IMG/VR virus record: IMGVR_UViG_3300033463_000098
Reading direction: 5' to 3' (one strand)
Source of the DNA: an uncultured virus (IMG/VR IMGVR_UViG_3300033463_000098)
Lineage: Duplodnaviria > Heunggongvirae > Uroviricota > Caudoviricetes
DNA length: 64,000 bases
This document shows, in pieces, positions 18,144 through 34,338 of the stretch. Below the pieces are notes generated by a model that worked only from the letters and a program-made list of their open reading frames with translations, was not told where the DNA came from and did not search any database. Position 1 is the stretch's first letter; each line of letters opens with the position of its first letter. Made by a program: the position numbers and the translations under genes.

Positions 18144-18283
18144 TTCAGCTTGTATGTAATTTCCAGCTTTCCAGCTCATGGTTCCAGCTAGCCAGCCACT
18201 TCCAGCTTGTAGCTTCCAGCCTACGGGCCCGTTTCATTCCAGCTTTCCAGCCTGGCCAGGATTTCCAGCTTGCGGGCCAGCTT
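18144..18283 (+). repeat. CCAGC(T)-rich short repeat tract
   Basis: about a dozen (C)CAGC(T/C) words in 140 bp. Confidence 0.85.
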
Positions 18284-18444: not shown

Positions 18445-18564
18445 TTCAAATTGTTGACTTTTTGTAAATTAAATGGCCCGGGTATTATAATTTACATAGT
18501 TTTAACTTGACATGTTATAAATTATGATATATAATAAATGTATAAAAAGAAAGGAAATAAAAAT

Positions 18565-19248
18565 ATGGCATTGAAAATTTTGAGTAACAACAACATTACC
18601 TGTAATACTCATGATAGTGGTATTTATTTCTTTGGAGAACGCGGTCTTACCCCTGACGGCGAAGTATTTTGCTCCGTAAAGATTGGATGGGGTAGCGATT
18701 TATCAAAACGTATTTCTCAATATAAAACTTATAGTTGCCAATTATTCCATCAGCAACACCATGTTTTAACTAAAAAACTACCTGTTCCGCATGGATATGA
18801 TATGGAAACTTTTGCACATGCTATGCTTGTGCTGCTTGCTATTGGTTTGCCTTCATATAGCCGTGAATGGTTTTATGTAAGTGAGCCAGTATATTTTGAA
18901 TTGTGTAAAGACCCGTGGCAGATTTTTGATGTTAATAGAATGGAAGAACTAATTAAATTAGCGGAAAAAACTAAAAAGAACAATCGTTATTATATCAATA
19001 AAACTGAATATGATAAAATTTATCAACATGATAAGATGATGACAGAGCAAGTTATTGCTCGTGAAGATATTATTAAACGACAAGCAGAAGAAATTGAAGC
19101 ATTAAATAAAACAAAACAATCTTATTTTGAACTTATTCAGGCTTATGAAGAAGATAATAAATTTAAACAATATTATTATGAATATAGTATTAGATTTCAT
19201 CTTGCTCCATGGTGGAAAAAAATATTGATGGCATTGAATATTATTTAA
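18565..19248 (+). CDS. T5orf172/MUG113-like (GIY-YIG) domain protein with C-terminal coiled coil
   Basis: GIYFF...VKIGW...RISQYKT...E...H...REWF. Confidence 0.65.
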   Translation: MALKILSNNNITCNTHDSGIYFFGERGLTPDGEVFCSVKIGWGSDLSKRISQYKTYSCQLFHQQHHVLTKKLPVPHGYDMETFAHAMLVLLAIGLPSYSREWFYVSEPVYFELCKDPWQIFDVNRMEELIKLAEKTKKNNRYYINKTEYDKIYQHDKMMTEQVIAREDIIKRQAEEIEALNKTKQSYFELIQAYEEDNKFKQYYYEYSIRFHLAPWWKKILMALNII

Positions 19249-19334
19249 GAGGGTTACTCCCTCTTTTTTTTAATTACATGTAAATTAAACTACCCGGGCA
19301 CTCTATTTAACATTCCCTTAATAAAAAGAGGACT

Positions 19335-20051
19335 TTACGTCCTCTTTACATCCATCCAACAGTTGCGGCGGATGCCCTTGCCGTAGGGCATTGCTTTATG
19401 GCTGTCAAAGCATCGCCGCATGATATACGCTTCAATGAGAACATCTTCAAGTCCTTTGTGTTCTTCTTCAAATTGCGGCGAAAGTGTCAAGTAGCGGTAA
19501 ACATTTTCCGCGCTGGTGCTGATATTGCGCGCCTTTTTGTTTGTGCCATGACCGTTGCCGGAAAAAAGCTGATTTTCTTCACAGAAGCGGCGATATGTAA
19601 TGCGCTGGCAAATGGTTTGACAAGCCATATTCCAGATACAAACAAAGTTCGTATTGCGCGGGAAAAAGTATCTGTGTTTAGACTTTGTTAACCATCTTTG
19701 CGTGGTGTTGAGGGCGTTGCGGTCAAAGTGAGCGTTATAGGCAGCTACATCGTGAATATTATATTTCTCCATGAGGTCGAGAACATAGCGGCGGGCGGTG
19801 TAGAAGTCAACCATCTTGCGGTCGCCCGCATGAATAGCATCGACATATTCGGAAATCTTATTGGCATAGTAGGCAGTCCGCATGAGTTCGCGCTCATAAA
19901 CGAAAATGTCGCGGATAACGAAAGAAAAACTTTCGTAGATGTTACCCTGTTTGTCCGCAACCACACCGCCCAGATCGTAAACTAGCGGCTGTTCCAGTCC
20001 GTTTGTGGTTTCGGTGTCCAGAATCAGATAATACTTGATGCGCTTGTCCAT
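19335..20051 (-). CDS. DnaQ/DEDDh-like 3'-5' exonuclease
   Basis: LDTETT, AYNAHFDR, EEHKGLEDV. Confidence 0.85.
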   Translation of the reverse strand: MDKRIKYYLILDTETTNGLEQPLVYDLGGVVADKQGNIYESFSFVIRDIFVYERELMRTAYYANKISEYVDAIHAGDRKMVDFYTARRYVLDLMEKYNIHDVAAYNAHFDRNALNTTQRWLTKSKHRYFFPRNTNFVCIWNMACQTICQRITYRRFCEENQLFSGNGHGTNKKARNISTSAENVYRYLTLSPQFEEEHKGLEDVLIEAYIMRRCFDSHKAMPYGKGIRRNCWMDVKRT

Positions 20052-20217
20052 GAAGTGTATCTCCTTTCTTTGATGATATAAGTATATCATAGGCAGGAAA
20101 AGAAGTCAAGTTAAGTATTGGTTAATTTAATAACCCGGACAATATAGTTAATGAAGATTTAACTTGACCTTTCGCGCTTGCGGGTGTATAATGTAATTGA
20201 AAGTGAGGGGATGACTT

Positions 20218-20730
20218 GTGAAGTCCAATTACATTGTGAGAGCAAAGAAGTTTATGCGCGATTTCCTGCCTTATCTTGAGGCGTATGAATTTGTGGGCAG
20301 AGCCGTCCTTGCTTATAATGAAGCAAAGCACCGTCATGTTGAACATTATCATGGTTTAGTTAGGCAGTGCGTATGCTTGTCTGATTATGCTATCAAATGG
20401 GATTATAATGAATATTATGCTGATATTTATGGCGGGTGCAAGGAAGAAGTTATTAACTATAACTTCGCTCGCGAGCATGGCTATGAGTATCTTTTCGCGG
20501 AAATTACGCCGATTGAAATTTGTGGGCGTGTGTTTTATGTAATGCCGCGCGTGAAAAAGTTAGCAATTACGTTTGATGAATATGAACCCGATAACCGGCT
20601 GTCATATGATGAATATGAGTTTGTTTTTGGGGTTATGGGATTGCATGATATGCATGATGAAAACTGGGGCTTGGTTAATGGAAAAGTGAAAATCATTGAC
20701 TATGCGAATTATAAGAGAGAGGATGAATAA
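20218..20730 (+). CDS. protein-kinase-like (PKL-fold) protein
   Basis: GLVR...YAIKWD, CKEEV, HDMHDENWG, KIIDYA. Confidence 0.75.
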   Translation: MKSNYIVRAKKFMRDFLPYLEAYEFVGRAVLAYNEAKHRHVEHYHGLVRQCVCLSDYAIKWDYNEYYADIYGGCKEEVINYNFAREHGYEYLFAEITPIEICGRVFYVMPRVKKLAITFDEYEPDNRLSYDEYEFVFGVMGLHDMHDENWGLVNGKVKIIDYANYKREDE

Positions 20731-20962
20731 TCCTTTCTTTTTTATCTTTATGTTAATTATATAGTCCGGGTCATATAATTAACCGTCTTTTAACTTGACT
20801 TTTCTTAGATTTTCTGTTATACTATAATTGTTCCAAGGGCAGGGAGGTAAGGACGAAGAGCCAAGAATTAACAAAGTCTTAACTTGACTTTCCGCTGAAT
20901 CTCTGCTATAATAATCACAGAAAGGGCAAGGAAAAGCCCAAAAAACCAGAAAGGGAAACAAT

Positions 20963-21283
20963 ATGTCTATGAACGCCGCTGAGATCAAGTCCACCGCTCG
21001 CCAGATGACCATCGCTGCTATCATGCCCGCCTTGATGGAGAACGACGCTGTGAAGTTCGCGGATGCGTCCTTTGCCATCCTGCAGACCGTTGACGGTCAG
21101 GAAGTTTGGACGGAAGTTACCGTCAAGTCCAAGGCGTACAAGCCCACCAAGGTGTCGCCCGCGTTCGACCCCTTTGAGGCCGCGGAGGCGTGGGAGGCCG
21201 AGAAGAAAATCAAGGCCGATGCCAAGGCTGCCAAGGAAGCTGAGAAGGCCGCAAAGCTTGCGGCGAAAGAGGAGAAGGCGTAA
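20963..21283 (+). CDS. hypothetical protein with Ala/Lys-rich C-terminal tail
   Basis: promoter, conserved leader, GC-rich codons; paralog of 26211 and 26734. Confidence 0.8.
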   Translation: MSMNAAEIKSTARQMTIAAIMPALMENDAVKFADASFAILQTVDGQEVWTEVTVKSKAYKPTKVSPAFDPFEAAEAWEAEKKIKADAKAAKEAEKAAKLAAKEEKA

Positions 21284-21361
21284 GCCTTCTTCTTTTTTTT
21301 TATGGTATTGTTAATTAAATAGCCCGGGTATTAAAGTTAATATAAAATTAAAGAAGCGTGA

Positions 21362-21670
21362 TTAACACGCTTCTTTTGTTGCGGTTACGACAATACCAAT
21401 TTCATTGGTATTAATATAGCAATCGCCATATTCAGTTTTGATAGCAACGTCATATCCCATTGCTTGAAGTTTTTCAATGCTAATACGGATATTCTTAACG
21501 AGATCGGTTACACGCTGGCGTGCTTCTATTTCGCGCCGTTTCTTAACAATCTCCATGAGATCGTTAACAAACGGCTCAAGCTGGTCTGTTTTCATTGCGA
21601 GAACATCTTCCGCGAGCATGGCGAGAGCGGTTTCATTATATTCAGAAGAATGGTGCGAAACATCTTTCAC
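21362..21670 (-). CDS. hypothetical protein
   Basis: second gene of a two-gene cassette. Confidence 0.65.
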   Translation of the reverse strand: MKDVSHHSSEYNETALAMLAEDVLAMKTDQLEPFVNDLMEIVKKRREIEARQRVTDLVKNIRISIEKLQAMGYDVAIKTEYGDCYINTNEIGIVVTATKEAC

Positions 21671-21825
21671 GAATTTTTTGCTCCTTTCAAATTTTCCATC
21701 ATTAGGAGAATCTTTTCATACTCTTCCGCATAGCGGTAACGGTCAAACATTGCGAGACGTAAGCGGCGAATTTTAGGAGAACAAGGTTGCCGCGCAATCC
21801 ATTTACGAATTTTATCAAAGTCCAT
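21667..21825 (-). CDS. small hypothetical protein
   Basis: start MDFDKIRKW after AAAGGAG. Confidence 0.6.
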   Translation of the reverse strand: MDFDKIRKWIARQPCSPKIRRLRLAMFDRYRYAEEYEKILLMMENLKGAKNS

Positions 21826-21997
21826 TAGTTTATTGCTCCTTTCATTTTCTATATATATAATAGCAGAAATTAAATTAAAAGTCAAGTTAATAGTTTGTTA
21901 ATTTGAATAACCGGGCACCTTATTTTACATAATCTTAACTTGACTTCATATGTGATTTATTGTATAATGATATTAGAAAGCGAAAGGAGATTAGCCT

Positions 21998-22516
21998 ATG
22001 AAGTCTGATTATCGTGTTCGTGCGGAGAAGTTCCTGCGGTCTGTGTTCCCCTATATTCAGAACGTGCTGTCTGATGAGGACGCCGTTGCCGACGCAATCG
22101 CGGACTATAACCGCCATCACTCCCGCAAGGTGGAAGTCAACTATGGCTCCGCGCGGATTGCCCTCATTACCTCTGACTATGTGGTAAAGTGGGACTATGA
22201 TGAGGACAATGTTGCGGACATTGGCGGCTGTGAGAAAGAATGGGAAGTGTATTGCCGCGCGTGTGATGCTGGTATGTCCCATCTTTTCGCGGAAAGCACG
22301 TTGATTGACTATTGCGGCGTTACCTTTGAGATTATGCCGCGAATCAGGGCAATTGGTCCCACTCATCATAAGTATGATTTTCTTTATATGATTTCGGCGG
22401 CAGAGGAAATTTGGCTGCGTGAAAATGGCATATTGTACGACCTTCACCACTGGAATTGGGGTATTATGCGCAATAAGCCTGTGATTGTGGACTATGCCTA
22501 CATTGAAACGGAATAA
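21998..22516 (+). CDS. protein-kinase-like (PKL-fold) protein
   Basis: GSAR...YVVKWD, CEKEW, YDLHHWNWG, VIVDYA; paralog of 20218. Confidence 0.78.
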   Translation: MKSDYRVRAEKFLRSVFPYIQNVLSDEDAVADAIADYNRHHSRKVEVNYGSARIALITSDYVVKWDYDEDNVADIGGCEKEWEVYCRACDAGMSHLFAESTLIDYCGVTFEIMPRIRAIGPTHHKYDFLYMISAAEEIWLRENGILYDLHHWNWGIMRNKPVIVDYAYIETE

Positions 22517-22623
22517 CCGCATAAGCGGTTATTTTTTTATAGGAATGTTAATTTTATAGCCCGGACTATATATTTAACATATGGTTAATAAAAGAAAATC
22601 CCGCCTTGCGGCGGGATTTTAGA

Positions 22624-23010
22624 TTAGGCAAGCCGGTAGGTATTCGCCTTGCCCTTGGCCTCGGTCTTGATCAGTTCGGGCGCCATCTCCCGCAGGAGAA
22701 CCGCCTGAACCTTGCCGACAGTGAAATCGGCGGGCAGTTCGCCCTTGGCGACCTCAAAGAGATCCTTGGCGGTGATGTCCGCGGTGAGATAGTTCCGCAG
22801 AACAGGGGCGACCTTGGCGATCAGTTCCGCCCGCGCCTTGGCGTTCTGCTCCTTGCGCTTGGCGTTCTGCTTCGCCTTGGAAGCGTCAGAGCGGGACTTG
22901 CCAAGCTGGGCGACCATCTTGGAAATGACCTCGCGGACTTCGGTCTCGGTCTCGGGGATGAAGGTCAGAGCGGTGGACAGAGCGGCGGACTTGGTGATGA
23001 TGTTCTTCAT
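22624..23010 (-). CDS. putative winged-helix DNA-binding protein
   Basis: ITAKDLFE...FTVGKVQAVL...KANTYRL pattern; paralog of 24466. Confidence 0.6.
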   Translation of the reverse strand: MKNIITKSAALSTALTFIPETETEVREVISKMVAQLGKSRSDASKAKQNAKRKEQNAKARAELIAKVAPVLRNYLTADITAKDLFEVAKGELPADFTVGKVQAVLLREMAPELIKTEAKGKANTYRLA

Positions 23011-23275
23011 AATGATACCCTTTCTGGTTTGTGAGGTTTTCCTTCCTCTGTTGTGTATTCATTATAGCACTTTCGCGCTAGAATGTCAAGTTAACTGTTT
23101 GTTAAGAGTTTCGGGGTTGGCTTTGGGATTTGTTTTCCTTCCCTCTCAACAAATATAGTATAGCAGAATTTGAAATGAAAGTCAATACTTTTCTATGTAA
23201 AGATTAAGTAAAATACATAGTCCGGACTACATAATTAACATTGATTTAATAAAAGAATTAAGGCCCTGATGGGCC

Positions 23276-24292
23276 TTAATATCTGAAATCGCTTCCCATA
23301 TATTCCGCGAGGCGGTTAATCCTATTCATAAGCCCACGGCAATAATTGGAAACATCGCCGCCAGTTTCTTCTATTTTCGCGTCAATGTATGCCGTGATAG
23401 CATCAAAAACCGCGTAACATTCTACCATGTTAGGAACCTGCCGACGCATACAAAATTCATCGGTGCCGCCCAAGTCACGGAAGGGGAAGAACTTAATGCC
23501 GGGGGTCACGGCATGTTTTGTCGCAATCTTTGAAAGGATGAAAGTTTCGATTTCTGCGTCATTCAATGCGGTGTGAGACTCAATAAAGTCATACTTATTA
23601 ATCAAATACTGATAAGAAGATTCAGCGGAAGTTTTGAAGAATGTGCCGGAGTTGGTGAACATGCCGTGATTGATACATTCATTTTTATAGGTTGCGTTAT
23701 TAAGAAGGTGAGTAGTTGCCAAACCCCAAAGGTCAAACAACATATACTCATTGCCATGAAAACGGAAAATATCGGCTTCAAAATCAGGGTCGCCCTTATC
23801 TTTTCCCTTATTATCTGCGATAAAGGCCGCGCTCCTGCGCTGGAGATTTTCCCAAGCGAAGTAGTCAGGGCTATAAAGCTCACGGATATAAAGATCGGTG
23901 AAGGGAATGGCCTTTTTGAAATCGAACATGGCATTGAACGCGCCCACAGCGTCAACCTTCCCCAAGTCCTCAATAAAAATTTTCATAACATCATTCCAAG
24001 GTAAGACAGAAGTTTCGCTACGGGAAAGCATTTCAAGATAGATAGGACGCTTTTCGGCATAATATGCCGTGTTAAAGATGGCGGGAACAGAAAAGGTTTC
24101 GGCAATCAGAAATTGCTTTTTGTCATAGATATGGCCCTTTCGGTCGGTGATAGTCCACCCAATGTCATAAACAAGGGGCTTCGCAATCGCAATACGCTTT
24201 TTGCGCTCGGGGTCGCCCTGCGCGATTTCATTTGCGAAAGGGAGGGTCGCGGTTTCCGTATCAACTACCATGAAATACAATTTCTTCGCCAT
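23276..24292 (-). CDS. DnaQ/DEDDh-like 3'-5' exonuclease
   Basis: VDTETA, AFNAMFDF, ESHTALNDA; paralog of 19335. Confidence 0.85.
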   Translation of the reverse strand: MAKKLYFMVVDTETATLPFANEIAQGDPERKKRIAIAKPLVYDIGWTITDRKGHIYDKKQFLIAETFSVPAIFNTAYYAEKRPIYLEMLSRSETSVLPWNDVMKIFIEDLGKVDAVGAFNAMFDFKKAIPFTDLYIRELYSPDYFAWENLQRRSAAFIADNKGKDKGDPDFEADIFRFHGNEYMLFDLWGLATTHLLNNATYKNECINHGMFTNSGTFFKTSAESSYQYLINKYDFIESHTALNDAEIETFILSKIATKHAVTPGIKFFPFRDLGGTDEFCMRRQVPNMVECYAVFDAITAYIDAKIEETGGDVSNYCRGLMNRINRLAEYMGSDFRY

Positions 24293-24465
24293 TTTTAAAT
24301 CCTTTCTGGTTTACGGTGTTTTCCTTCACCTGATGGATATATTATAACACGGGGGAAGGGTTATGTCAATAGATTTTTATGTTAAGTCTGAGTGAATTAG
24401 ATGGGCCGGGAAATAAAATTAACATAGGGTTAAAAGAAGAACCGCCCTCGCGGGCGGTTCTTTTG

Positions 24466-24798
24466 TTACGCCTTCGTAAAGGTGAAGGCGTTCTTGCCGT
24501 TGTCGTGCTTAACGACCTCGTCGTTCCAGTAGTTACGCAGAGCGTAACCGACCTTGTTCGGGGTGAAGCCCTGCGGCCACTCGTCGCTCGCTTCAAAGAT
24601 TTCCTTCGCCGTCATCGGCTCGTTGCCCATCACGCCGAAGGCGATTTCCTTCGCCTCGTCGTAGGCGATGCGGTTCGCGTCGCGCTTCGCGTTCAGACGC
24701 TCATACTCGGCGTTGACTTCCTCGCGCAGAACAGACAGGTCAACAGTCTCGTCGCCGTTCAGGTAGTTGCGGATGGCTTCCAGAGTGTTCTTCTTCAT
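24466..24798 (-). CDS. putative winged-helix DNA-binding protein
   Basis: MTAKEIFE...FTPNKVGYALR...KNAFTFT. Confidence 0.6.
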   Translation of the reverse strand: MKKNTLEAIRNYLNGDETVDLSVLREEVNAEYERLNAKRDANRIAYDEAKEIAFGVMGNEPMTAKEIFEASDEWPQGFTPNKVGYALRNYWNDEVVKHDNGKNAFTFTKA

Positions 24799-24894
24799 AG
24801 TGTTATGTCCTTTCTGGTTTGTTGGGTTTTCCTTCCCTTTGATGTATTTATTATAGCACCGATTGGCTATAATGTCAAGTTAAGAGTTTGTTAA

Positions 24895-25035
24895 GGTTTA
24901 TCCCTTTTCGTTCGCCTTAACCAAATGCCTGCGGCTTCTCTCGCTTATTGGGAACAGGCAGTCGTAAGTTGCGGGGAGTACTTCGCGGGTACCAACGCGG
25001 TGAGTGGGCTATCCCCTGTTTCCTGCCCTCTCAAC
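24895..25035 (-). ncRNA. possible small non-coding RNA
   Basis: own TTGACA-17-TATACT promoter (about 25042-25070); GC-rich ~140 nt with no convincing RBS-led ORF. Confidence 0.35.
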
Positions 25036-25087
25036 ATATTTAGTATATCACGATTTCCGCTCTTTGTCAAGTTAAGATTTCGTGAAG

Positions 25088-25162
25088 TGGTGAGGGTGGC
25101 GGGAATCGAACCCGCGATACATGGATTAAAAGTCCATTGCCATACCACTTGGCTACACCCTC
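25088..25162 (-). tRNA. tRNA-Lys(UUU) with encoded CCA
   Basis: acceptor GAGGGTG/CACCCTC-A-CCA, anticodon arm ATGGA-CTTTTAA-TCCAT, T arm GCGGG-TTCGATT-CCCGC. Confidence 0.93.
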
Positions 25163-25304
25163 ATGTTTTGGGTTTTGGTTTCCCTCGCCCTCAACTGAAT
25201 ATAGTATAGCAGAAATTGAATGAAATGTCAATAGTTTAGAAGGTAAAGATTGTGTAAAGTATAGTGCCCGGACTATATATTTTACATAGAGTTAAAAGAG
25301 AACA

Positions 25305-25493
25305 CTATGCGTTCTCCCATTCTTCCCATGACTCCCAAAAAAGACCCCAATCATCACATTCTTCCATGGGGTCGTTAATGTAACAAACCCCGCCGCCATA
25401 ATAGGGGCAATCGGTACCGTTACACGGGCAATAAACCCATTCGCGCTTGCCAGTGTTGCGGTCAAAATGCTTACCATCACTTTCTCTAATCAT
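25305..25493 (-). CDS. small Cys-rich protein
   Basis: MIRESDG...YCPCNGTDCPYY...C...C; GGGAGG RBS. Confidence 0.65.
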   Translation of the reverse strand: MIRESDGKHFDRNTGKREWVYCPCNGTDCPYYGGGVCYINDPMEECDDWGLFWESWEEWENA

Positions 25494-25662
25494 AATAGTC
25501 CTCCCAATCTTCATAGGCTTCAATCTCGTATTCGTGTTCAAAGTTATAGTCCTTTTTCTTGTTAGGAATAATCTTGGTTACGGGATTGATGTTACCCCAA
25601 TCGCCGCGAATCTTGCGGACAACTTCATAGGTGGAATTGGTGTTCTTCTTATTCTTCTTCAC
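25486..25662 (-). CDS. small hypothetical protein
   Basis: GTG start after AAGGGGG; MKKNKKNTNSTYEVVRKIRGDWG... Confidence 0.55.
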   Translation of the reverse strand: MKKNKKNTNSTYEVVRKIRGDWGNINPVTKIIPNKKKDYNFEHEYEIEAYEDWEDYYD

Positions 25663-25820
25663 TTCTAAACCCCCTTTGATTTTAGGATTATGGTTTATCT
25701 CTTGGTTCTGAAACTATTATATCAAAAACAAAATGAAATGTCAAGTTAAAGGATTATTAACTTTATAACCCGGCTAGAATAATTAACATGATTTTAAAAT
25801 GAAATTAGAGGAATGGTTAA

Positions 25821-26090
25821 TTACCATTCCTCGTCTATGGAACCGCAGATTTCAAACATGTCACATCCACAATAGGGGTCATAGTTGGATTCGTCCACAT
25901 CATCGGGAATATTATCTTCATAATCTTCGGGGTCGTAAATTTCATTGCCCCAAAAATAAACGATGTTTTGAGGGTCGTTATATTCAACCTTTTCTACAAC
26001 CTCATAGAGACCGTGAAGGTGATGGTCAGCAAGGACAATAGCATCTTCGGGCACATTCTGGAGTTCCCTAATCAGTTCTTTAACAGTCAT
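25821..26090 (-). CDS. acidic hypothetical phage protein
   Basis: MTVKELIRELQNVPEDA. Confidence 0.75.
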   Translation of the reverse strand: MTVKELIRELQNVPEDAIVLADHHLHGLYEVVEKVEYNDPQNIVYFWGNEIYDPEDYEDNIPDDVDESNYDPYCGCDMFEICGSIDEEW

Positions 26091-26210
26091 AATTAAAATC
26101 TCCTTTCTTTTTCTATAAATAATATAGCATATTAAAAGAAAATTGTCAAGTTAATTATTAGTTAATTATATAATCCGGGCAATATAATTAACATAGAAAT
26201 AAAAAGGGGA

Positions 26211-26582
26211 TTACTCCCCTTCCTTTTCCTTTTTCGCGGCTTCGCGCTTGGCCTTGTCCTTGGCTGCCTTTTCCGCGCGGGCGGCGGCCTGTTCGGCCTT
26301 CTTCGCCTTCTTCGCGTTGTAGTCGGCAATCTCGGACTCCATGAGTTCTTCCGCGCTCATGTCCTCGCGCAGTTCGGCAACGATGGCGCCAATGCGGATG
26401 TAACGCTCCGCACCGTTAACATCCTTCATGAGGATGCCAAACTGGCGGTCGTTGATCTTCTCAAACCTGATAACGCTGTCCGCGATGTCGGAATATTCCT
26501 CATCGTCAAAGTAGTCGGGGAACATGAAGTGGAAAACTTCGTTGCGGAGAATGGAATCGACGACGGCCTTGGAAATCTTCAT
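26211..26582 (-). CDS. hypothetical protein with Ala/Lys-rich tail
   Basis: conserved leader, GC-rich codons. Confidence 0.8.
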   Translation of the reverse strand: MKISKAVVDSILRNEVFHFMFPDYFDDEEYSDIADSVIRFEKINDRQFGILMKDVNGAERYIRIGAIVAELREDMSAEELMESEIADYNAKKAKKAEQAAARAEKAAKDKAKREAAKKEKEGE

Positions 26583-26733
26583 AGTGTTTGCCCTTTCTGG
26601 TTTGGAGTGTTTTCCTTCACTTGTTGATATAAGTATAGCAGAAATTTAGGTAAATGTCAATACTTTTTTGTGTTAATTATCGGTAAAATAGAGTGGCCGG
26701 GCTATTAAATTAACATTGAATTAAAGAAGGGGA

Positions 26734-27132
26734 TTACTCCCCTTCGTGAATCATGGCATCAAGACCCTTTTCGTTAAGGTTCTTGATAACCTTGCGGGCG
26801 TTGCGCTTGCGCTCCTTTTCCTTTTCGGCGCGCTCTGCCTTTTCCTTGCGCTTGGCTTCCTTGTCCGCCTTATCCGCGAGGACAAGTTTCCAATCTTCGG
26901 CGGCGGCGTAACCGTCGTAAGCGTCATAGCCGCCATCGCCATTGCGGGAACCGCGAGGGATAGAGACTTTGATGAGGGCAAACTTTTCGTTACCTTCGGC
27001 ATCAACAACAGGCATTGCGAGTTCGCTTGCGCTAACGGGCATCACATCGGTTTCGTAGTGTTCGGACAGAAAGTTAATGAACGCGGCGAGAATGTCATTG
27101 CGGATTGCGGTTTCAAGAGACGCTTTACTCAT
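26734..27132 (-). CDS. hypothetical protein with Lys/Glu/Ala-rich tail
   Basis: start MSKASLE after the conserved leader. Confidence 0.8.
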   Translation of the reverse strand: MSKASLETAIRNDILAAFINFLSEHYETDVMPVSASELAMPVVDAEGNEKFALIKVSIPRGSRNGDGGYDAYDGYAAAEDWKLVLADKADKEAKRKEKAERAEKEKERKRNARKVIKNLNEKGLDAMIHEGE

Positions 27133-27207
27133 GGATGTTATCCTTTCTGGTTTTTTAGTGTTTTCCTTCACTTTCTGGATATAGTATAGCAGATTTGGGG
27201 AGAAAAG

Positions 27208-27360
27208 TCAAGTTAAGATTTCTTTAATTTCTTTCTTAATAAATTTAATCTTACATTCTTTACAGTAATAAATCTTAGGATATTTGGGCTGTTTGTTTCT
27301 TTCTACCCATAACGCACCTTGATGACATTTGGGGCAAAGACTCCAATATCGGTTAATCAT
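27208..27360 (-). CDS. small Zn-ribbon protein
   Basis: MINRYWSLCPKC...YCKEC; AAAGGAG RBS; stop lies within the next -35 box. Confidence 0.6.
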   Translation of the reverse strand: MINRYWSLCPKCHQGALWVERNKQPKYPKIYYCKECKIKFIKKEIKEILT

Positions 27361-27481
27361 TTGACTTTCTCCTTTCACTTTCTATAAATAGTATAGCACA
27401 ATTTTTATAAAAAGTCAAGTAAATTATTTGTTAAATTTATAGTCCGGCAAATTTAGTTAACATGAAATTAAAAAAAGTCGG

Positions 27482-27928
27482 CTACGCTGCCGACTTTACA
27501 AATTCTGTTAAGATTGTGAAAATTTCACTGGGTTCATATGCCGCGCCGTTGCCCCATGTGTCACGATTTTTCGCTTCATCATCAAACAGGCAACCGCTGC
27601 CGCAAGTTTCCCATTTGTTAGTACCATATGGAACGATTTTAATTTCATCCCATTTAACAGACGGCAGGTGAAGGCCAAGCCAAAACATTTTCGCGCCCGT
27701 CACAAGTGCGTCATATTCCGGCGTGCTGGACTTTGACAACCAAGAAATAACGCCGATTTCATAACCCATTTTCTGAAGGCGATTCAGATAGCGGGCAAGT
27801 CGCGAAAGATTCACAAGCGGGCGGGCGATTTCATAGGGCGTCGGGTCGCCGTCAATCAACATCGGAAGCCAGTTCTGAACCCCGTAAAGATCAGCGATTG
27901 TCCCATCCATGTCAAACCAGATTTTCAT
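27482..27928 (-). CDS. HAD-family phosphatase / 5'(3')-deoxyribonucleotidase-like
   Basis: MKIWFDMDGTIADL (DxDGT), K...LFDD. Confidence 0.8.
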   Translation of the reverse strand: MKIWFDMDGTIADLYGVQNWLPMLIDGDPTPYEIARPLVNLSRLARYLNRLQKMGYEIGVISWLSKSSTPEYDALVTGAKMFWLGLHLPSVKWDEIKIVPYGTNKWETCGSGCLFDDEAKNRDTWGNGAAYEPSEIFTILTEFVKSAA

Positions 27929-28065
27929 ATTGTGTTTGCTCCTTTCCTGTTCTGATATAAGTATATCAAAAATGGGGTAAAAAGTCAAGTTAAGATTATG
28001 TTAAATAGGCGGCCCGGGCATTATAGTTAACATTGATATAAAAAAAGTATAGGTGATACCTATAC

Positions 28066-28443
28066 TTAATTTTGTATGAAATAAAGTTTATGTATGTGGC
28101 GGTAAGTATGTTCAATAATTTCAACTTCGGATTGCCATTGGTCTGGATGCCAATTGATTTCTATGTTTTCACAATGCGCGGCATAATAATTTTTAACAAA
28201 GTCTACGGCTTTATTATAATTATTTGCGCGGTTGACAAGTTCTTGTTGTTCGGTGATAAGGCGTGTTTTTGCTTTGTCTTTCAATTCACCATCGGGGTAA
28301 AGTTCGACACAGCAGCGAGCAGTTTCTACGATGCTAACTTGGGCTTGTAGCCGTTTTGACATTACTAGCGCGGTGTCCCATTGCCGCTTATATTCCAACG
28401 TCCAGTTATTGTAATTCTTCACAGCTTTCTTCTTTCCAAACAT
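28066..28443 (-). CDS. hypothetical protein
   Basis: promoter, RBS and terminator within one cassette. Confidence 0.7.
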   Translation of the reverse strand: MFGKKKAVKNYNNWTLEYKRQWDTALVMSKRLQAQVSIVETARCCVELYPDGELKDKAKTRLITEQQELVNRANNYNKAVDFVKNYYAAHCENIEINWHPDQWQSEVEIIEHTYRHIHKLYFIQN

Positions 28444-28760
28444 ATTTTTATGCTCCTTTCAGCTTGTGCCTTAATTATAACAGCTTTCCAGCCTGCTGTC
28501 AAGTTAAGATTCTGTTAAGTCTAGCTTGTGACTGGCAACGCAAACAACCGGAACGCATCCGGCAATTAACACAAATTTAATCTGTGCTTTACTCAAAGTT
28601 AACACTTCCTTAACTTAAACATAACAATCACCTCTGTTACCTATATTCCACCATAGGGTATTGTACCACATTCGCGGCGAGTTGTCAAGTTAATTGTGTG
28701 TTAATTAGAGTGCCCGTGCAATTTGTTTAACATAGGATTTACATAAAAAAAATTGGCTCC

Positions 28761-28970
28761 TTAGCGGCGCCAATTTTTGTCATTTTCGGTGATTTCGCCG
28801 GTGTCGGGCGTGAACTGGTAGAATTTGCCATTATCGCAGTGGATGTTAATTTGGAAGAAATTGTTAACTTCCATTTTTTCAATCGCGGGAATGTTGAAAG
28901 TCCAACCAAAGAAAGCATCAAACGCGGCGAGAGCGCCTTCAAAATCGCGGAAAGACATTGCCTTATTCAT
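28761..28970 (-). CDS. hypothetical protein
   Basis: MNKAMSFRDF after GAGGAG. Confidence 0.7.
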   Translation of the reverse strand: MNKAMSFRDFEGALAAFDAFFGWTFNIPAIEKMEVNNFFQINIHCDNGKFYQFTPDTGEITENDKNWRR

Positions 28971-29112
28971 TGTTTGTTCTCCTCTCAATTCGTCGTTTTT
29001 TATTTTATTATATCATATATTTTTGATTTGTCAAGAGGTTTTTAATGTAAAATATTGGTTAACTATAATGCCCGGGCTATATAGTTTACATATGCTTAAT
29101 ATAAGAAAAGGG

Positions 29113-29421
29113 TTAGCACCATGCTAACCCCATTGTGCGCCAGTTGAGAATTGAAAGTTGGTTACATTCGCGGCCGATTTTCATTGCTTCACGCTTTGTG
29201 TTAACGCGTTTGGATTTATCAATGTAATAAATCCCGTCGCTGTACCAAATGCCGCAATTGCCTTTGTATGCTTTTACGGCGTTAATTGCTTCGCGTGCGT
29301 CTTTGGTTTCGATGCCTTCGGTTGCTACTTGCCATCCGGTTTTATAGGTGATGATTTTCCCGCGCTTCAAAGTCAGGCCGTCATTGTTAGAGAGCTTGCG
29401 AATGGTACGAATGTTAATCAT
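29113..29421 (-). CDS. hypothetical phage protein
   Basis: MINIRTIRK after GAGAGG. Confidence 0.7.
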   Translation of the reverse strand: MINIRTIRKLSNNDGLTLKRGKIITYKTGWQVATEGIETKDAREAINAVKAYKGNCGIWYSDGIYYIDKSKRVNTKREAMKIGRECNQLSILNWRTMGLAWC

Positions 29422-29546
29422 GGTGGAAACCTCTCTTTCGTTTGTTTCTGATATGATTATACACCTTGGGCATACGATTGTCAAGTTAAAAGTGTGTAAA
29501 CTATATAGCCCGGATAATATAATTAACATTGAGTTTACGAAAAGTA

Positions 29547-29783
29547 TCACCCATGTGGGTGATACTCATATCGTGCGCACATAGACGCGTAACGATAAGC
29601 GACACGGTAAAGATCGCTGTCGTTAAGCGGCTGGATGTAAGTTGGGTAGGGTTCGCCGCTTTCATAGATAGCGGCATGGCGTGCGCCGTCAATAACGACA
29701 AATTTAACACGCACATAGCAAGTCTTGCCCTGAAGAGAAAAGCCATCAACATCACGAAACATCAACATAACAACAACCTCCAA
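29547..29783 (-). CDS. hypothetical protein (start uncertain)
   Basis: fills a cassette between promoter and hairpin. Confidence 0.5.
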   Translation of the reverse strand: MEVVVMLMFRDVDGFSLQGKTCYVRVKFVVIDGARHAAIYESGEPYPTYIQPLNDSDLYRVAYRYASMCARYEYHPHG

Positions 29784-29904
29784 TATCTTGATTACAGTAA
29801 CAGTATAACATAAAAAGTAAAATAAAGCAAGTTAATTGTACGTAAAATATATAGCCCGGGCAATATAATTAACATAGCAATAATAAAAAAAGAATTGAGT
29901 TACC

Positions 29905-30048
29905 TCAATTCTTTACAACGATTTTGAGAAACCAAAGATATTGTGGCTGTTCATAAGACAGATAATCAACCGCAATGCGCGCTTTAAGTTTATCATAGAA
30001 AACGATGGTCTTTGTTTCTGCGGTATTGGTTACGATGTACTTTGTCAT
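29905..30048 (-). CDS. small hypothetical protein
   Basis: MTKYIVTN after GGGAGG. Confidence 0.6.
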   Translation of the reverse strand: MTKYIVTNTAETKTIVFYDKLKARIAVDYLSYEQPQYLWFLKIVVKN

Positions 30049-30187
30049 GATTTTATCCTCCCTTGATTTATTGACTATATTATACCACAACAAGAAAAGA
30101 AAAGCAATGATTCTAAATGTAAAATTTGGGGAAATTAAAAAGCCCGGGGTATATAATTAACATTTGTATAATAAAAAATTTGAGGGA

Positions 30188-30373
30188 TTAATCCCTCAAA
30201 TCTTTTTCTGAAATGATGGTCATGCTGCCGAAAAGGTAGATAGTCGGATCATAAATCTTGTTGCGGTTGTTCCACAGGAAATTGCGGGCGGCGCGAGTAG
30301 TGTAGAAGAATTCGTCCTTGAGATCAAAAGAGTTCATGTCGATGTAGTAGATGACATAAAGCGGAAGATTCAT
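30188..30373 (-). CDS. small hypothetical protein (paralog of 31193)
   Basis: shared FYTTRAARNFLWNNRNKI. Confidence 0.75.
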   Translation of the reverse strand: MNLPLYVIYYIDMNSFDLKDEFFYTTRAARNFLWNNRNKIYDPTIYLFGSMTIISEKDLRD

Positions 30374-30489
30374 AGTGACAACCTCTTTTCTTGATTTCTT
30401 GAGTATAGTATACCATATACATACGGAAAAGTCAAATTAAATAATGGTAAACTATAATGCCCGGGATATGTATTTAACATAGATATAAT

Positions 30490-30662
30490 AAAAACCGTGG
30501 CGGTTAGCTACTCTGCCACGGTTGGCTCAAACATTACTGATTCGCCACATCAGCAGGGAACGGTTCTCCAAATTTGGGCATCCCATTTCTACCGCCAAGT
30601 AGTGGTTAGCCCTTGCATCAGTAGGGCGGCATCCTATCAACGCTCCTCTCTCCCTTTCGACA
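30490..30662 (-). ncRNA. possible sRNA (or 37-aa TTG-start peptide) cassette
   Basis: TTGACT-17-TATAAT promoter, GC-rich body, ACCGTGGC...GCCACGGT-TTTT terminator. Confidence 0.4.
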
Positions 30663-30758
30663 AGTCTATTATAGCAAAAAATCCAATAGAAGTCAAGTTA
30701 AAAGCAAGTAAAATAGAATGAACGTACAATGTAATTAACATAAATAAAAAAATTGGGA

Positions 30759-31046
30759 TTACTCCCAATTTTCAATATATCCACTATAACGAATATTGAT
30801 GATAATATCATCATAAATTATTTCTGTTCCGTTATCTTCCATAATCGCGGCGATAATATCGCCCTTTTCATAATCTTCAATGTCGCTCCACAACCATTCA
30901 TTCCCATTAAAATCAATAAGAATGAGCATGTTTTGCGCGCGATCAATGTCATTTACAAAAAAGGTTTGCGGGTAAATTTCGGCGCGAGCGGTAGAAAAAG
31001 CAACGACCATAGCAAACAGAGCAATGATGGCGATAAACTTCTTCAT
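30759..31046 (-). CDS. secreted/exported small protein
   Basis: signal peptide MKKFIAIIALFAMVVAFSTARA|E. Confidence 0.75.
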   Translation of the reverse strand: MKKFIAIIALFAMVVAFSTARAEIYPQTFFVNDIDRAQNMLILIDFNGNEWLWSDIEDYEKGDIIAAIMEDNGTEIIYDDIIINIRYSGYIENWE

Positions 31047-31192
31047 AAATATTCTCCTTCTGGTTTTTAAGTGTTTCCTTCACTTGTTGTATATAGTATA
31101 ACACGAGATTATTATAGAGTCAAGTTAAATAATTGTAAAGGGCAATAAACGTACATTCTATTTAACATTGAAATAATAAAAGAAATGAAGGA

Positions 31193-31378
31193 TTAATCCT
31201 TCAAATCTTTTTCGGAAATTTCAGTCATGCTGCTGAAAAGATAGATAATTACATCATGAATTTTGTTACGATTATTCCAAAGAAAATTGCGGGCGGCGCG
31301 GGTAGTATAGAAATAACGGTAAATCGCGGCATTAGTGTTGTTGTCAATGTAATCAATAGAATACAGAGGGAGACTCAT
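31193..31378 (-). CDS. small hypothetical protein (paralog of 30188)
   Basis: MSLPLY...SEKDLKD. Confidence 0.75.
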   Translation of the reverse strand: MSLPLYSIDYIDNNTNAAIYRYFYTTRAARNFLWNNRNKIHDVIIYLFSSMTEISEKDLKD

Positions 31379-31439
31379 AGTAAATACCTCATTTTCGGGA
31401 TTGTTGGTTGCTTTCCTTTGGAACAATTATATTATAGCA

Positions 31440-31690
31440 AATGAAAATGAAATTGTCAATATGAAATTAGGAAATTTAATTTGAAATTAACATAAGTTTG
31501 GGGGTATTAAAAATGAAAATGAAATTGCATTTTAGGAATATAAAATGAAATTAAAATTGAAATTGAAATTATGGGAAATGAAAATGAAATTGCATAATGG
31601 GATATTTCATATTAAATAAAAATGAAATTTCAGGAAAATGTTTAAAAATGAAATTCTAAAAAATATTACAATAAAATAAAATGAAATTGC
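31440..31690 (+). repeat. AAATGAAATT(G) repeat tract
   Basis: more than 10 copies; the same word occurs at 15478-15500 and 15560-15577. Confidence 0.75.
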
Positions 31691-31869
31691 ACGTGTAAAC
31701 ATAAAGTAAAGAATAAAGTACGTGTATTTGAATTAACATAATTATAACAGATAATTTTATTTAGTATTATGTTTATTATTGCTATTATTTTTAGTACGTT
31801 ATATAAATTTATGTTTTTATATATTAATGTGTTTTTATATAGAGTTAATAAAATATTAAATAGTATAAT

Positions 31870-31907
<38 letters not shown>

Positions 31908-32032
31908 AATTATAATATTATTTATTTTGTTATTAATATTATTACAATTAATAATATTGCTGAGTATTTTTATTATTATTATTATTAATTATGTTTATTT
32001 AATTTATTTATTTTATAAATTAATAAATTATA

Positions 32033-32203
32033 TTAATGGAAAAAAGCTGGCAAAAGAATTAAGAATAAAAGTGCGATAATTAGAGTAATACTATCAAAAA
32101 TATAACCGCTAATCAACAATATAACTTTTTTAATATCGTTAAAAGTTAACCTATAAAACCACATTTTAATTTTATAAGAAAAGGAATTTCGAGAACGTTT
32201 CAT
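32033..32203 (-). CDS. small membrane protein
   Basis: MKRSRNSF...ITLIIALLFLILLPAFFH; AAGGAG RBS. Confidence 0.55.
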   Translation of the reverse strand: MKRSRNSFSYKIKMWFYRLTFNDIKKVILLISGYIFDSITLIIALLFLILLPAFFH

Positions 32204-32446
32204 GGCTTATATCTCCTTTTTGTTTCTATACATATATTATACTATAGTTTTATTATAAAAGCAAGTATAAAATTAAAGCTATATTATGACAAAATATTTA
32301 TAAGATTTAATTTTTAAGTCTAATTTATTTTAATTTTATGTTAATTGTATTCAACGCGCATTTCAATTTACTTTTTTTTAACTTGACATTTCATTTCCAT
32401 TTTGCTATAATATGTATAACACAGAAAAGAAAGGGGATTTTTTAAA

Positions 32447-32587
32447 ATGAAAGTTTACGTTATTGATTGCAATGGTTTTCAAGGTAGTGCTTACTATTCT
32501 CGTTTTGATGAAGCGCAAGCCGCGGCCATTTGGCGTACTAATTGCACAGGTATGGAATGGAAAGTGCGGGAGTTAATACTCCCGTAA
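32447..32587 (+). CDS. small hypothetical protein
   Basis: TTGACA-17-TATAAT, AAAGGGG RBS, MKVYVIDCNG... Confidence 0.65.
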   Translation: MKVYVIDCNGFQGSAYYSRFDEAQAAAIWRTNCTGMEWKVRELILP

Positions 32588-32710
32588 TTTCATTTTAAGT
32601 TTATGTTAACTGCACTGCACGTTGTTTATATTTTACAATTTTTTAACTTGACTTTTCATTCTCAATATGCTATAATCATTCTAGAAACAAACGAAAGGGG
32701 ATTTCCTAAA

Positions 32711-32860
32711 ATGACTAAGCATAATACCGTTCGCGTGTGGGAAGATTTGACCGATCAGGAACAGATTTATATGTGGTGGGGCTATAACGCGGCAAATCCC
32801 GATGATCCAGTTTCATTTCCAACTTTTGATGAAATGATGCAGGGATTCACTTTTGAGTGA
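32711..32860 (+). CDS. small hypothetical protein
   Basis: MTKHNTVRVW after promoter and AAAGGGG. Confidence 0.65.
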   Translation: MTKHNTVRVWEDLTDQEQIYMWWGYNAANPDDPVSFPTFDEMMQGFTFE

Positions 32861-32940
32861 ATCCCATAATTTATATTATCATAATGTTAATTATATAGCA
32901 CGTAAATTTTAATTAACATAATTTTAAAATAAATGGTATG

Positions 32941-33126
32941 TTAAACATACCATTTCATAATATGCATTGCTTCTTGAATCTCGCGGCACGACCACGTTTC
33001 AAACGTAATTATTAAATAACCATCTTCAAGTCGTTCCGTCATGTAATCAAGTCCGGCATCTGCCAACTGCTCATACATGTGCTCAAGAGAAGAATTGATC
33101 TCAATGATAAAAGACTTTACGAACAT
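32941..33126 (-). CDS. small hypothetical protein
   Basis: promoter and GAGG RBS. Confidence 0.65.
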   Translation of the reverse strand: MFVKSFIIEINSSLEHMYEQLADAGLDYMTERLEDGYLIITFETWSCREIQEAMHIMKWYV

Positions 33127-33307
33127 TTGGAATTTACCTCGCTTTCCTAACTTTCAAGAATATCCTATCATACAAATTCCAAAATGTCAAGTTAATTGAT
33201 TGTTAATTACAATGGACGTACTGTATATTTTACATACTTTTTACTTGACATTTCGTAAATGATATGATATACTATTTATAGAATTAAAGAAAGGAATGGT
33301 ATCCCGA

Positions 33308-33571
33308 ATGAAAAAGATTATTCTTGCGGTTGTCCTGTGTGCTCTTGCTTGCCTATGCCTCACTGGTTGTCAACTTGGGAACCGTCAGATCGGTTTTGAC
33401 ACCAAGCAACGATTTGATGAAGCCATTATCTTTACGCCAACATATGAAGTTGTTAGCGGTGACATCGAATCATGGCGCGATTTTTCCGAGTCGGATGTTG
33501 TACAAGTTACTATCGGCGGTGTCACTTATCTTACACATTACAGTAATGTCATCCTGATTAGGCATAATTAA
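33308..33571 (+). CDS. phage lipoprotein
   Basis: MKKIILAVVLCALACLCLTGC lipobox. Confidence 0.75.
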   Translation: MKKIILAVVLCALACLCLTGCQLGNRQIGFDTKQRFDEAIIFTPTYEVVSGDIESWRDFSESDVVQVTIGGVTYLTHYSNVILIRHN

Positions 33572-33656
33572 CGCGAGCAATCGCGTTTTTCTTTATGATA
33601 ATGTTAATTTTATTACACGTTCTATTGAATTAACATAAATATAATAAAGCGTAGAT

Positions 33657-33920
33657 TCAATATCTACGCTTTTTGTTTTTAAGATGTTTAGCGCTTTGCT
33701 GGTTAAAACGTTCATAAGCGCTGATTTTACGATATTCTCTATATTCTGTTTCGGTGATTTCCTTGCCATAGATTGCCATGCGTGTATGCTTAACGCTCGG
33801 CATCTTGCGCGCGATGTCGCACGCTTCAAGTAAGTTGTTTGCCGCGATTGCGAACTTGATCTCAGTGCTGTGGCCTACGCCGCAATGACCTCTGTGACAC
33901 ATGACCATGTAGAACTTCAT
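33657..33920 (-). CDS. hypothetical protein
   Basis: MKFYMVMCHRGHCGVG...MPSVKH. Confidence 0.7.
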   Translation of the reverse strand: MKFYMVMCHRGHCGVGHSTEIKFAIAANNLLEACDIARKMPSVKHTRMAIYGKEITETEYREYRKISAYERFNQQSAKHLKNKKRRY

Positions 33921-34212
33921 TGGAAAAACCCCTTTCGTTTGTTTCTATATATATTATATACAATTAGAGAACAGATGTCAAGTAAAGATACAATTAAGAT
34001 TATTGCACGCACTTTTTTCTTTAAGTAAAATTAACTTTAGTTTTTATTTTATTTCAATATTTTTAATTTATATTTAGCATTTTAATAACTTGATTATCCG
34101 TTTTATTATATTTTAATTTTTATTTATGTCTTTAAATTTTGCTCTCATTTTCAAGCTGCTCTCTTATTCCCATTCTCAACTCCAACTCCGTATTTTATTT
34201 TCGGCTCTAGGT

Positions 34213-34338
34213 CCAGCCCCAGCCCAGCTTCCAGCCCGGCCCAGCCTCCAGCTCACCCCAGCTTGCAGCCTAATCCCAGCTTCCAGCTTCCAGCTTCCAT
34301 AAGAACTTCCAGCTTGCAGCTTCCAGCTTGCAGCTTCC
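34213..34338 (+). repeat. CCAGC(T)-rich short repeat tract
   Basis: about 14 (C/G)CAGC words, e.g. CCAGCTTCCAGCTTCCAGCTT. Confidence 0.85.

Follow-up and report, generated by a model that had tools for sequence, protein, structure and literature searches.

Why should a palindromic site that marks the joints of a phage gene array change its central bases part-way along that array? The question is raised by the uncultured Caudoviricetes record IMGVR_UViG_3300033463_000098, of which a stretch of 64,000 nucleotides (hereafter the window) was analyzed. At 18.4–34.0 kb it carries about 28 small units, mostly made up of a near-consensus sigma70-type promoter, one or two open reading frames (ORFs) and a terminator, and the palindrome at their junctions has the core CCGG in a left zone and ACGT in a right one. 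A sequence-only reading had taken the palindrome for the target of a serine-type recombinase exchanging strands at the central CG. We favor, with some reserve, a different explanation: the palindrome, 52 bp long, would be the docking site of a predicted regulator and would also supply the homology for a cassette exchange like that of the promoter-early stem-loop elements (PeSLs) of T4-type phages. The two zones reflect a mosaic genome, and the core type is a lineage-wide trait, a property of the genome rather than of the cassette.

The 52-bp site and its two cores

A scan of the window with a profile whose central 8 bp were masked returned 29 strong sites, with the C of the CG at 18479–33618 and a central CG in 29/29. 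Along the window the cores run as 15 CCGG, CCGT (28715), five CCGG, three ACGT, ACGC (32355) and four ACGT, amounting to 20 CCGG, one CCGT, seven ACGT and one ACGC. The left core base forms two runs, and as few were seen in 0 of 100,000 shuffles; the core counts and the zoning reported earlier were thus reproduced. Matches to a 34-bp IUPAC pattern (at most three mismatches) number 27 in the window, while 100 shuffles averaged 0.01. The site itself is about 52 bp long rather than the 34 bp of the earlier reading, with the consensus TTAA-N4-ATGTWAA-TTANA-N3-[CA]CG[GT]-N3-TNTAA-TTWACAT-N4-TTAA. That only the central CG is invariant is correct within the central 8 bp but not elsewhere, as ten arm positions (7, 9, 10, 12, 13, 15, 16 and 24–26) are 88–99% conserved among 1259 half-sites of the GG or GT type. 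Positions 3–6 of the half-site are free, and conserved and free arm positions alternate as in a protein footprint. Palindromic covariation between the arms was not found except weakly at position 2, and the arms fold weakly (0/6 sites beyond a z of -2.2).

Two ACGC sites had been listed and counted, together with CCGT, as hybrid cores. The one at 32355 does read ACGC, but it is a point variant because the orthologous site of the relative L205 reads ACGT; the one at 33992 (center 34008) is below threshold, with one arm decayed and its CG at the usual promoter distance. True hybrids are ACGG or CCGT, so that the CCGT site keeps its hybrid status and the ACGC sites lose theirs. All features are collected in Table 1.

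Table 1. Coordinates of the array, its zones, individual sites and cassettes (positions in the window).
Feature	Position	Strand	Remarks
Cassette array	18454..34034	.	about 28 promoter-gene-terminator cassettes, bounded by 29 complete 52-bp palindromes plus a decayed site at the end
CCGG zone	18454..30488	.	21 sites: 20 CCGG and 1 CCGT
CCGG zone centers, part 1	18479, 19295, 20136, 20767, 21325, 21912, 22562, 23223, 24407, 25269, 25771
CCGG zone centers, part 2	26176, 26698, 27445, 28015, 28715, 29073, 29511, 29857, 30145, 30462
CCGT site	28690..28741	.	adjoins cassette 92–93% identical to cassettes of ACGT-type phages
Putatively recent cassette in CCGG zone	28716..29073	-	69-aa ORF 28761–28970; best matches 93%, 92% and 92%, all in ACGT-type arrays
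ACGT zone	30698..33644	.	8 sites (7 ACGT, 1 ACGC); centers 30723, 31150, 31721, 32355, 32620, 32901, 33217, 33618
L205-collinear block, six cassettes	31120..33660	.	2224/2511 aligned bases identical (88.6%); L205 is an all-ACGT locus
ACGC site	32330..32381	.	point variant; orthologous L205 site is ACGT
Promoter-facing arm, example	32355..32411	+	boxes at +12/+23, TTGACA at +28 (32383), 17-bp spacer, TG-TATAAT
Site between two convergent terminators	32876..32927	.	intact, no promoter adjoining; same at 19295, 21325, 22562, 33618
Decayed terminal site, ACGC core	33983..34034	.	promoter-facing arm still TTTAC-TTGACA at usual spacing
Secondary array promoter, example	20866..20912	+	tandem TTAACA-N5-TTAAC box, no palindrome or CG

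Relatives (G and L numbers below) were collected by pattern and protein searches, giving 34 non-duplicate arrays with 638 sites after exclusion of two duplicate contigs, three near-duplicate or divergent arrays, 19 duplicate loci, two divergent arrays and three divergent loci. The nearest record, G001, is 100% identical across the array and was treated as non-independent. The 638 cores comprise 369 ACGT, 193 CCGG, 33 CCGT, 30 ACGG and 13 others. In loci added later, sites were retained only if they had a central CG, and this set was therefore not used to judge CG invariance; with the center masked, 462 of 469 strong sites (window and duplicate contigs included) have a central CG. In G002, G003 and G005 the sites are restricted to a single region of 17–21 kb. 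Host chromosomes yielded no arrays: among 20 stretches from genome collections, 19 held a single site and one 3.4-kb contig held three.

Most arrays are nearly pure, with 33/33 CCGG in G006, 31/32 ACGT in G002 and 24/24 ACGT in L205. Differentiation between 21 arrays (an Fst-like measure) is 0.70 at position 2, beside the CG, 0.29 at position 4 and at most 0.13 elsewhere, and the halves of homologous cassettes carry G where the phage is of the CCGG type and T where it is of the ACGT type. The core type is tied to the genome and not to the cassette, since the cassettes of the left zone mostly match those of ACGT-type arrays. Most likely, the base beside the CG (G or T) would be set by the preference of the binding protein.

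Within the window, cassettes 22–27 match L205 cassettes 5–0 in order at 84–91% identity. The 21 cassettes left of 30723 include seven without a homologue, and the rest mostly show 72–86% identity to ACGT-type arrays, with the boundary cassette (89%) and cassette 28716–29073 (92–93%) as exceptions. The window is a mosaic whose ACGT block is common with an ACGT-type relative; the earlier suggestion of cassette pools from different donors agrees with the L205 collinearity and with these identities. The ACGT block would lie beside a resident CCGG block, the two unmixed so far, and judging from the identities this block and cassette 28716–29073 probably arrived later than the rest; alternatively, the ACGT zone may be an unconverted remnant. 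Because it borders the latter cassette, the CCGT site would most simply be an imported ACGT-type site with one change. Hybrid cores number 1 in the window against 11 expected. In seven of eight other mixed arrays they are near the number expected under free assortment (e.g. 15 against 13.8, 11 against 11.9), and in one they are short (4 against 8.4, p 0.018).

Could host restriction or methylation set the core type, either because a tetramer cut by the host is avoided or because the central C has to be methylated? The non-CG centers among the 638 sites are all TG (6/6, a partial count because added loci were filtered for CG), and relatives with a 19-bp element have ACGT or ATGT at the same place. 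However, CCGG-type arrays show no purging of ACGT elsewhere, depletion of CCGG is common to the two array types, and both cores coexist in the window. A C5 methyltransferase is absent from G002, G003, G004 and G005 and present in G008 (1/5 records); its absence from both the ACGT-type G002 and the CCGG-type G003 lends no support to phage-directed methylation as the divider of the zones, a role proposed earlier for methylation state. We regard this explanation as quite improbable.

Distant relatives have other palindromes at the same junctions, namely 19–20 bp elements such as TTAGATGTT-N-AACATCTAA or GC-rich cores with TTAAC arms. Each half of the 19–20 bp palindrome contains ACGT or ATGT; the element stands in the same place in L007, L010, L222, L281, L289, L291, L318 and G004, and its ACGT/ATGT alternation suggests C/T interchange or a methylated C.

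Cassette exchange and its breakpoints

The 604 cassettes of all arrays fall into 219 families, and families with at least eight members have 4–40 different neighbor families. Junctions with an unrelated neighbor outnumber those with a related one by 301 to 195, bearing out the proposal that the sites are places of cassette exchange. Cassettes are gained, lost and replaced, with crossovers distributed over the element. Inversion is seen in 38 of 994 shared cassette pairs and involves, among others, four window cassettes at 31.7–33.6 kb compared with G002.

Serine recombinases exchange strands at the central two bases, and the half-site stays with its flank. Linkage of site bases to the shared cassette was measured on cassette pairs of at least 92% identity with an unrelated neighbor (26 junctions, each end used once). 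It amounts to 0.05 at -30 to -20, 0.19 at -19 to -12, 0.42 at -11 to -2, 0.49 at +2 to +11, about 0.6 at +12 to +26 and 1.03 at +27 to +30; exchange therefore occurs within the site, yet not at its center. Half-sites had been predicted to travel with the adjacent cassette, which values of only 0.49 and 0.42 on the two sides of the center contradict. Many exchanges take the arm out to position 23–26, and the two inner halves are inherited together (rho 0.65 and 0.55). A center-only model has a log-likelihood of -654.7 against -518.2 for breaks uniform over ±26 (n=26), and a breakpoint model of ±4 bp was rejected. The share of exchanges within 4 bp of the center is 0.09 (95% range 0–0.29) at 92% identity or more (n=26) and 0.06 (0–0.20) at 88% (n=50); data simulated as center-only give a share of 1.00.

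Chimeric sites, in which two sites of another array are combined, point the same way. Five of seven breakpoint intervals exclude the CG and two include it, so that strand exchange at the CG, the core of the serine proposal, does not describe most events; one chimera breaks cleanly at -19 to -9 without a novel base. All seven intervals overlap the conserved block 8–15 bp from the center, where the longest identical run between sites mostly lies. The data comprise seven clean triples from related genomes and were fitted with a single-breakpoint model; uniform and block models are indistinguishable.

The serine mechanism is refuted for the bulk of events because crossovers lie off center, and as a general account of the array we consider it highly improbable. 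It would explain the CG in 462/469 strong sites, the hybrids at independence in mixed arrays and the 2/7 chimeric intervals that include the center, and a self-complementary dinucleotide permits exchange in both orientations, as in the 38/994 inverted pairs. Against it stand the rejection of the center-only model by more than 130 log units, the joint travel of the inner halves and the lack, in relatives, of the serine recombinase families PF00239 (0/5 records, three complete) and PF07508 (0/5 complete relatives). Tyrosine recombinases share a common overlap of 6–8 bp, and integrons use a covarying single-strand hairpin. Neither feature is seen here: positions 3–6 are free, covariation is lacking, folds are weak and the ±4 bp model fails. 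Integrase PF00589 was found in 0/5 relative records (three complete), and core proteins without a family match gave no recombinase-like match.

Two further signatures were rejected. Target-site duplication is not indicated: neighboring sites agree at 4.76 of 10 free bases, other sites at 4.25, and 8/543 of the neighbors are near-identical. Elevated change at the center appeared at looser thresholds only and is not established (0.025 against 0.019 per base in 25 close pairs).

The breakpoints could also be left by an unrecognised site-specific enzyme that binds the arms and cuts about 9–13 bp to the left and right of the CG, so that roughly the central 20 bp would pass through a heteroduplex and be inherited as a block, promoter phasing being secondary. 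Such a staggered cut would fit the 7/7 overlap with the 8–15 bp block, the symmetric linkage and co-inheritance of the inner halves and the intactness of sites without a promoter, and several conserved core proteins lack a family match. A model with breaks only at 8–13 scores -638 against -567 for the uniform one, however, and the many replacements out to 23–26, the tandem box at non-junction promoters (see below) and the lack of a candidate enzyme speak against it, leaving an outside chance.

In the explanation that we favor, the sites serve as homology, because every cassette is bounded by such repeats. General phage recombination, with a Sak4-like annealase and a Holliday-junction resolvase as in G003 (E 6e-51 and 9e-19), would delete, insert, move and invert cassettes between repeats that average 68% identity, with crossovers located mostly in the conserved arm blocks. 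On its own Sak4 is weak, and the oligonucleotides that it anneals differ by up to 20% (PMC5928155). Naming a Sak4-like enzyme is a guess, because the divergence between sites is 32% and identical stretches are about 9 bp long.

Promoter phasing and a predicted regulator

Two arms, back to back around [CA]CG[GT], make up the junction site; an arm consists of a tandem TTWACA-N5-TTAA(C) box that adjoins the -35 element and keeps to one face of the helix. Counted from the site center, the -35 starts at +28 in 423 and at +39 in 65 of 500 promoter matches (488/500 in total). In G004, which has a 20-bp palindrome, the offsets fall into four classes spaced by 10–11 bp, 18–20, 28–30, 39–41 and 48–50, in 9, 20, 4 and 2 of 35 cases; the seven loci with the 19-bp form show a peak at 19. 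At array promoters unlinked to a site, TTWAC abuts the -35 in 193/241 and both boxes are present in 104, the 193 including some missed weak sites and 27 with a CG. Promoter-like matches outside the arrays have the box in 0/116 cases. Arms that neither covary nor fold well, together with the phase to the promoter, are what characterizes a protein site in double-stranded DNA that is bound to the face of the promoter.

The docking protein would be sequence-specific and probably phage-encoded, controlling strong host-type promoters of accessory early genes. Repression or shut-off appears likelier than activation, because the promoters are near-consensus.

Terminator-facing arms are conserved at least as well. 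Sites between convergent terminators keep 21.0 of 22 conserved positions (n=36), the same as other sites (21.0, n=305), and in two syntenic pairs of tail-tail sites 0/44 conserved positions changed against 11/40 free ones. Such conservation could stem from a transcriptional roadblock, a looped repressed region or frequent conversion.

A simpler possibility is that the arms are boosters for host RNA polymerase resembling UP elements, made symmetric by gene conversion and read by no dedicated regulator. The boxes lie near -40/-51, close to the UP subsites at -43/-53 (PMC4495994), and occur at secondary promoters as well. Base-specific C16 (91–92%), the central CG and T7/T9/A10 exceed what a loose A/T-rich element asks for, however; terminator-facing arms are as conserved or more so, position 2 alone is homogenised, and relatives place other palindromes at the same position. 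We therefore judge this option unlikely. Very unlikely, in our view, is the proposal that the phage's own gyrase has strong sites here, between highly transcribed units, and that occasional breaks at them start recombination: G002 and G003 encode GyrA and GyrB, and the gyrase motif is symmetric with a 36-bp center and 10.75-bp periodic flanks (PMC6379681), but it is degenerate and 130 bp long, whereas the phage site is base-specific, extends no further than ±26 and is held in register with the -35.

We doubt, without dismissing it, a more far-reaching version in which one novel phage protein both controls the early promoters and directs staggered off-center exchange. Its specificity would flip between CCGG and ACGT with about 60 half-sites rewritten together, and the window would show a genome in the middle of such a sweep, its two cassette pools answering to different controls.

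Several points weigh against a regulator site that doubles as exchange homology. No cognate binding protein was found among the candidates examined in relatives. A 119-aa winged-helix protein is nearly the same in the ACGT-type G002, the CCGG-type G003 and G008, which has a different junction element, and in G006, where the site is the same, identity in the adjacent helicase-like gene is only about 23%. The conservation of sites between convergent terminators is not explained by local promoter control alone. Hybrids at free-assortment frequency fit central exchange and independent change of the halves equally well, and the breakpoint data, with seven triples only and phylogenetically non-independent junction pairs, are compatible with up to 20–29% of central events. 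The divergence of sites that average 68% identity also exceeds the 20% demonstrated for Sak4 (PMC5928155).

Two other comparisons failed to single out a binder. In the helicase-like gene, nine residues are common to the two CCGG-type copies against up to 23 in other pairs. The Sak4-like gene alone of 64 proteins groups G005 with G002, yet G004 has it too. Likeness of the core to parS, Noc sites and AraR boxes was dropped, as it concerns the middle bases only. Two related small cassette proteins (window 22624–23010 and 24466–24798, minus strand), which occur in most arrays and often in several copies, have a C-terminal winged-helix look by eye without a family match and are candidate binders.

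Genomic surroundings and known systems

The window comes from a large tailed phage, with portal and scaffold genes, a sigma-factor-like gene and a tape-measure-sized ORF right of the array and RNA repair and nucleotide genes to its left. The tape-measure-like frame (50500–63999, at least 4500 codons) extends past the window end and is absent from the initial ORF list. Five bovine gut metagenome runs, of which three may be its source, contain at least half of the window stretch, and the nearest deposited capsids, from phAss-1 and from Enterococcus and Clostridioides phages, are 25–40% identical. Reading TAG as a residue raises the open-frame share from 0.44 to 0.86 in G004, from 0.71 to 0.90 in G006 (partly) and from 0.76 to 0.85 in the window, which is unremarkable.

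A tRNA-Lys(TTT) gene (25088–25162, minus strand) lies within a cassette with its own promoter. Three paralogous cassette pairs were detected (19335–20090/23276–24292, 20218–20730/21998–22516 and 30188–30373/31193–31378), the last with one copy in each core zone. Several cassette genes share a leader, AAGGAAAA...AAACCAGAAAGG, that precedes the gene on the minus strand (examples at 23000–23050, 24290–24340, 26590–26630, 27140–27180 and 31050–31090); these families are also present in relatives. At 31400–32330, cassettes of very high A+T content have AAATGAAAT repeats and little coding sequence; conserved at about 89% in L205, they are possibly a non-coding RNA or an origin-like element.

Dense CCAGCT repeat clusters stand at both array ends (18163–18277 and 34224–34323), with similar clusters at the array ends of G002, G003, G004 and G005. 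The cumulative GC skew turns near 16 kb, adjoining a superfamily 2 (SF2) helicase-like gene (16332–17582), distant copies of which lie next to the G004 and G006 arrays. Clusters, skew turn and helicase-like gene may belong to an origin or else delimit a long terminal repeat.

The closest parallel is offered by the PeSLs of T4-type phages, in which terminator-promoter elements bound accessory ORFs of variable regions, crossovers at varying points of the element swap cassettes and excised mini-circles have been demonstrated, with no dedicated recombinase found in the available parts of these reports (PMC2839356, PMC4122927). Here, too, a terminator and a strong sigma70-type promoter flank accessory ORFs in a variable region. 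PeSLs are built of a stem-loop, an AT-rich stretch and a promoter without a long palindrome, whereas the present array adds a base-specific 52-bp palindrome between terminator and promoter, found at head-tail, tail-tail and head-head junctions, with inversion possible and two lineage-specific cores, in a phage that is not T4-type by its capsid.

As a repeated intergenic motif, tied here to promoters, the site resembles the SPBRE repeats read by MrpR in SPbeta (PMC10516654) and the stoperators of mycobacteriophages (PMC9283540), where many motif copies are read by one regulator and stoperators also occur away from promoters. Those motifs are 13–15 bp long and spread over the genome, stoperators are asymmetric, and the repressor is known (PMC10516654, PMC9283540); the array site is 52 bp long, symmetric and confined to one region, and candidate regulators did not track the site type. 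By analogy, the system would work like a PeSL with a multi-site operator of the SPBRE or stoperator type built in, as a member of neither.

Activator sites offer a positional parallel. With the TTGAC start taken as -35 (start sites unmapped), site centers fall at about -62.5 and -73.5, one helical turn apart, next to -61.5 for CRP and -71.5 for phi29 p4 (PMC3445967), to which there is no sequence relation; the site here is much longer and is also kept without an adjoining promoter. Boxes of the OmpR/PhoB type, e.g. WalR TGTHH-N6-WGTNDD (PMC10746227), likewise come as two boxes 11 bp apart beside a promoter. The WalR box matched 64 of 1272 half-sites in full and 798 with one mismatch, counted without a shuffle control, and no OmpR-type PF00486 protein was found in five relative records.

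Serine sites and integron attC arrays share with this array an inverted repeat at every cassette junction and an invariant central dinucleotide. The array differs in its off-center crossovers, a promoter for each cassette, the lack of a covarying hairpin and the absence of a recombinase or integrase in relatives.

In the literature searched, which covered few subscription journals and no supplements, no prior description of the element was found; phage genome tables there could hold one. The general design is known from PeSLs, to which the present analysis adds a map of breakpoints and an explanation for the switch of cores. An attractive serine-integron reading is thereby replaced by a testable one. 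For these uncultured gut phages of 170–185 kb, it means that a phased site is common to some 30 strong promoters in one region and doubles as the joint for accessory-gene exchange. The two core types, both present in the window, are a natural experiment in which a regulator and dozens of its sites would change specificity together.

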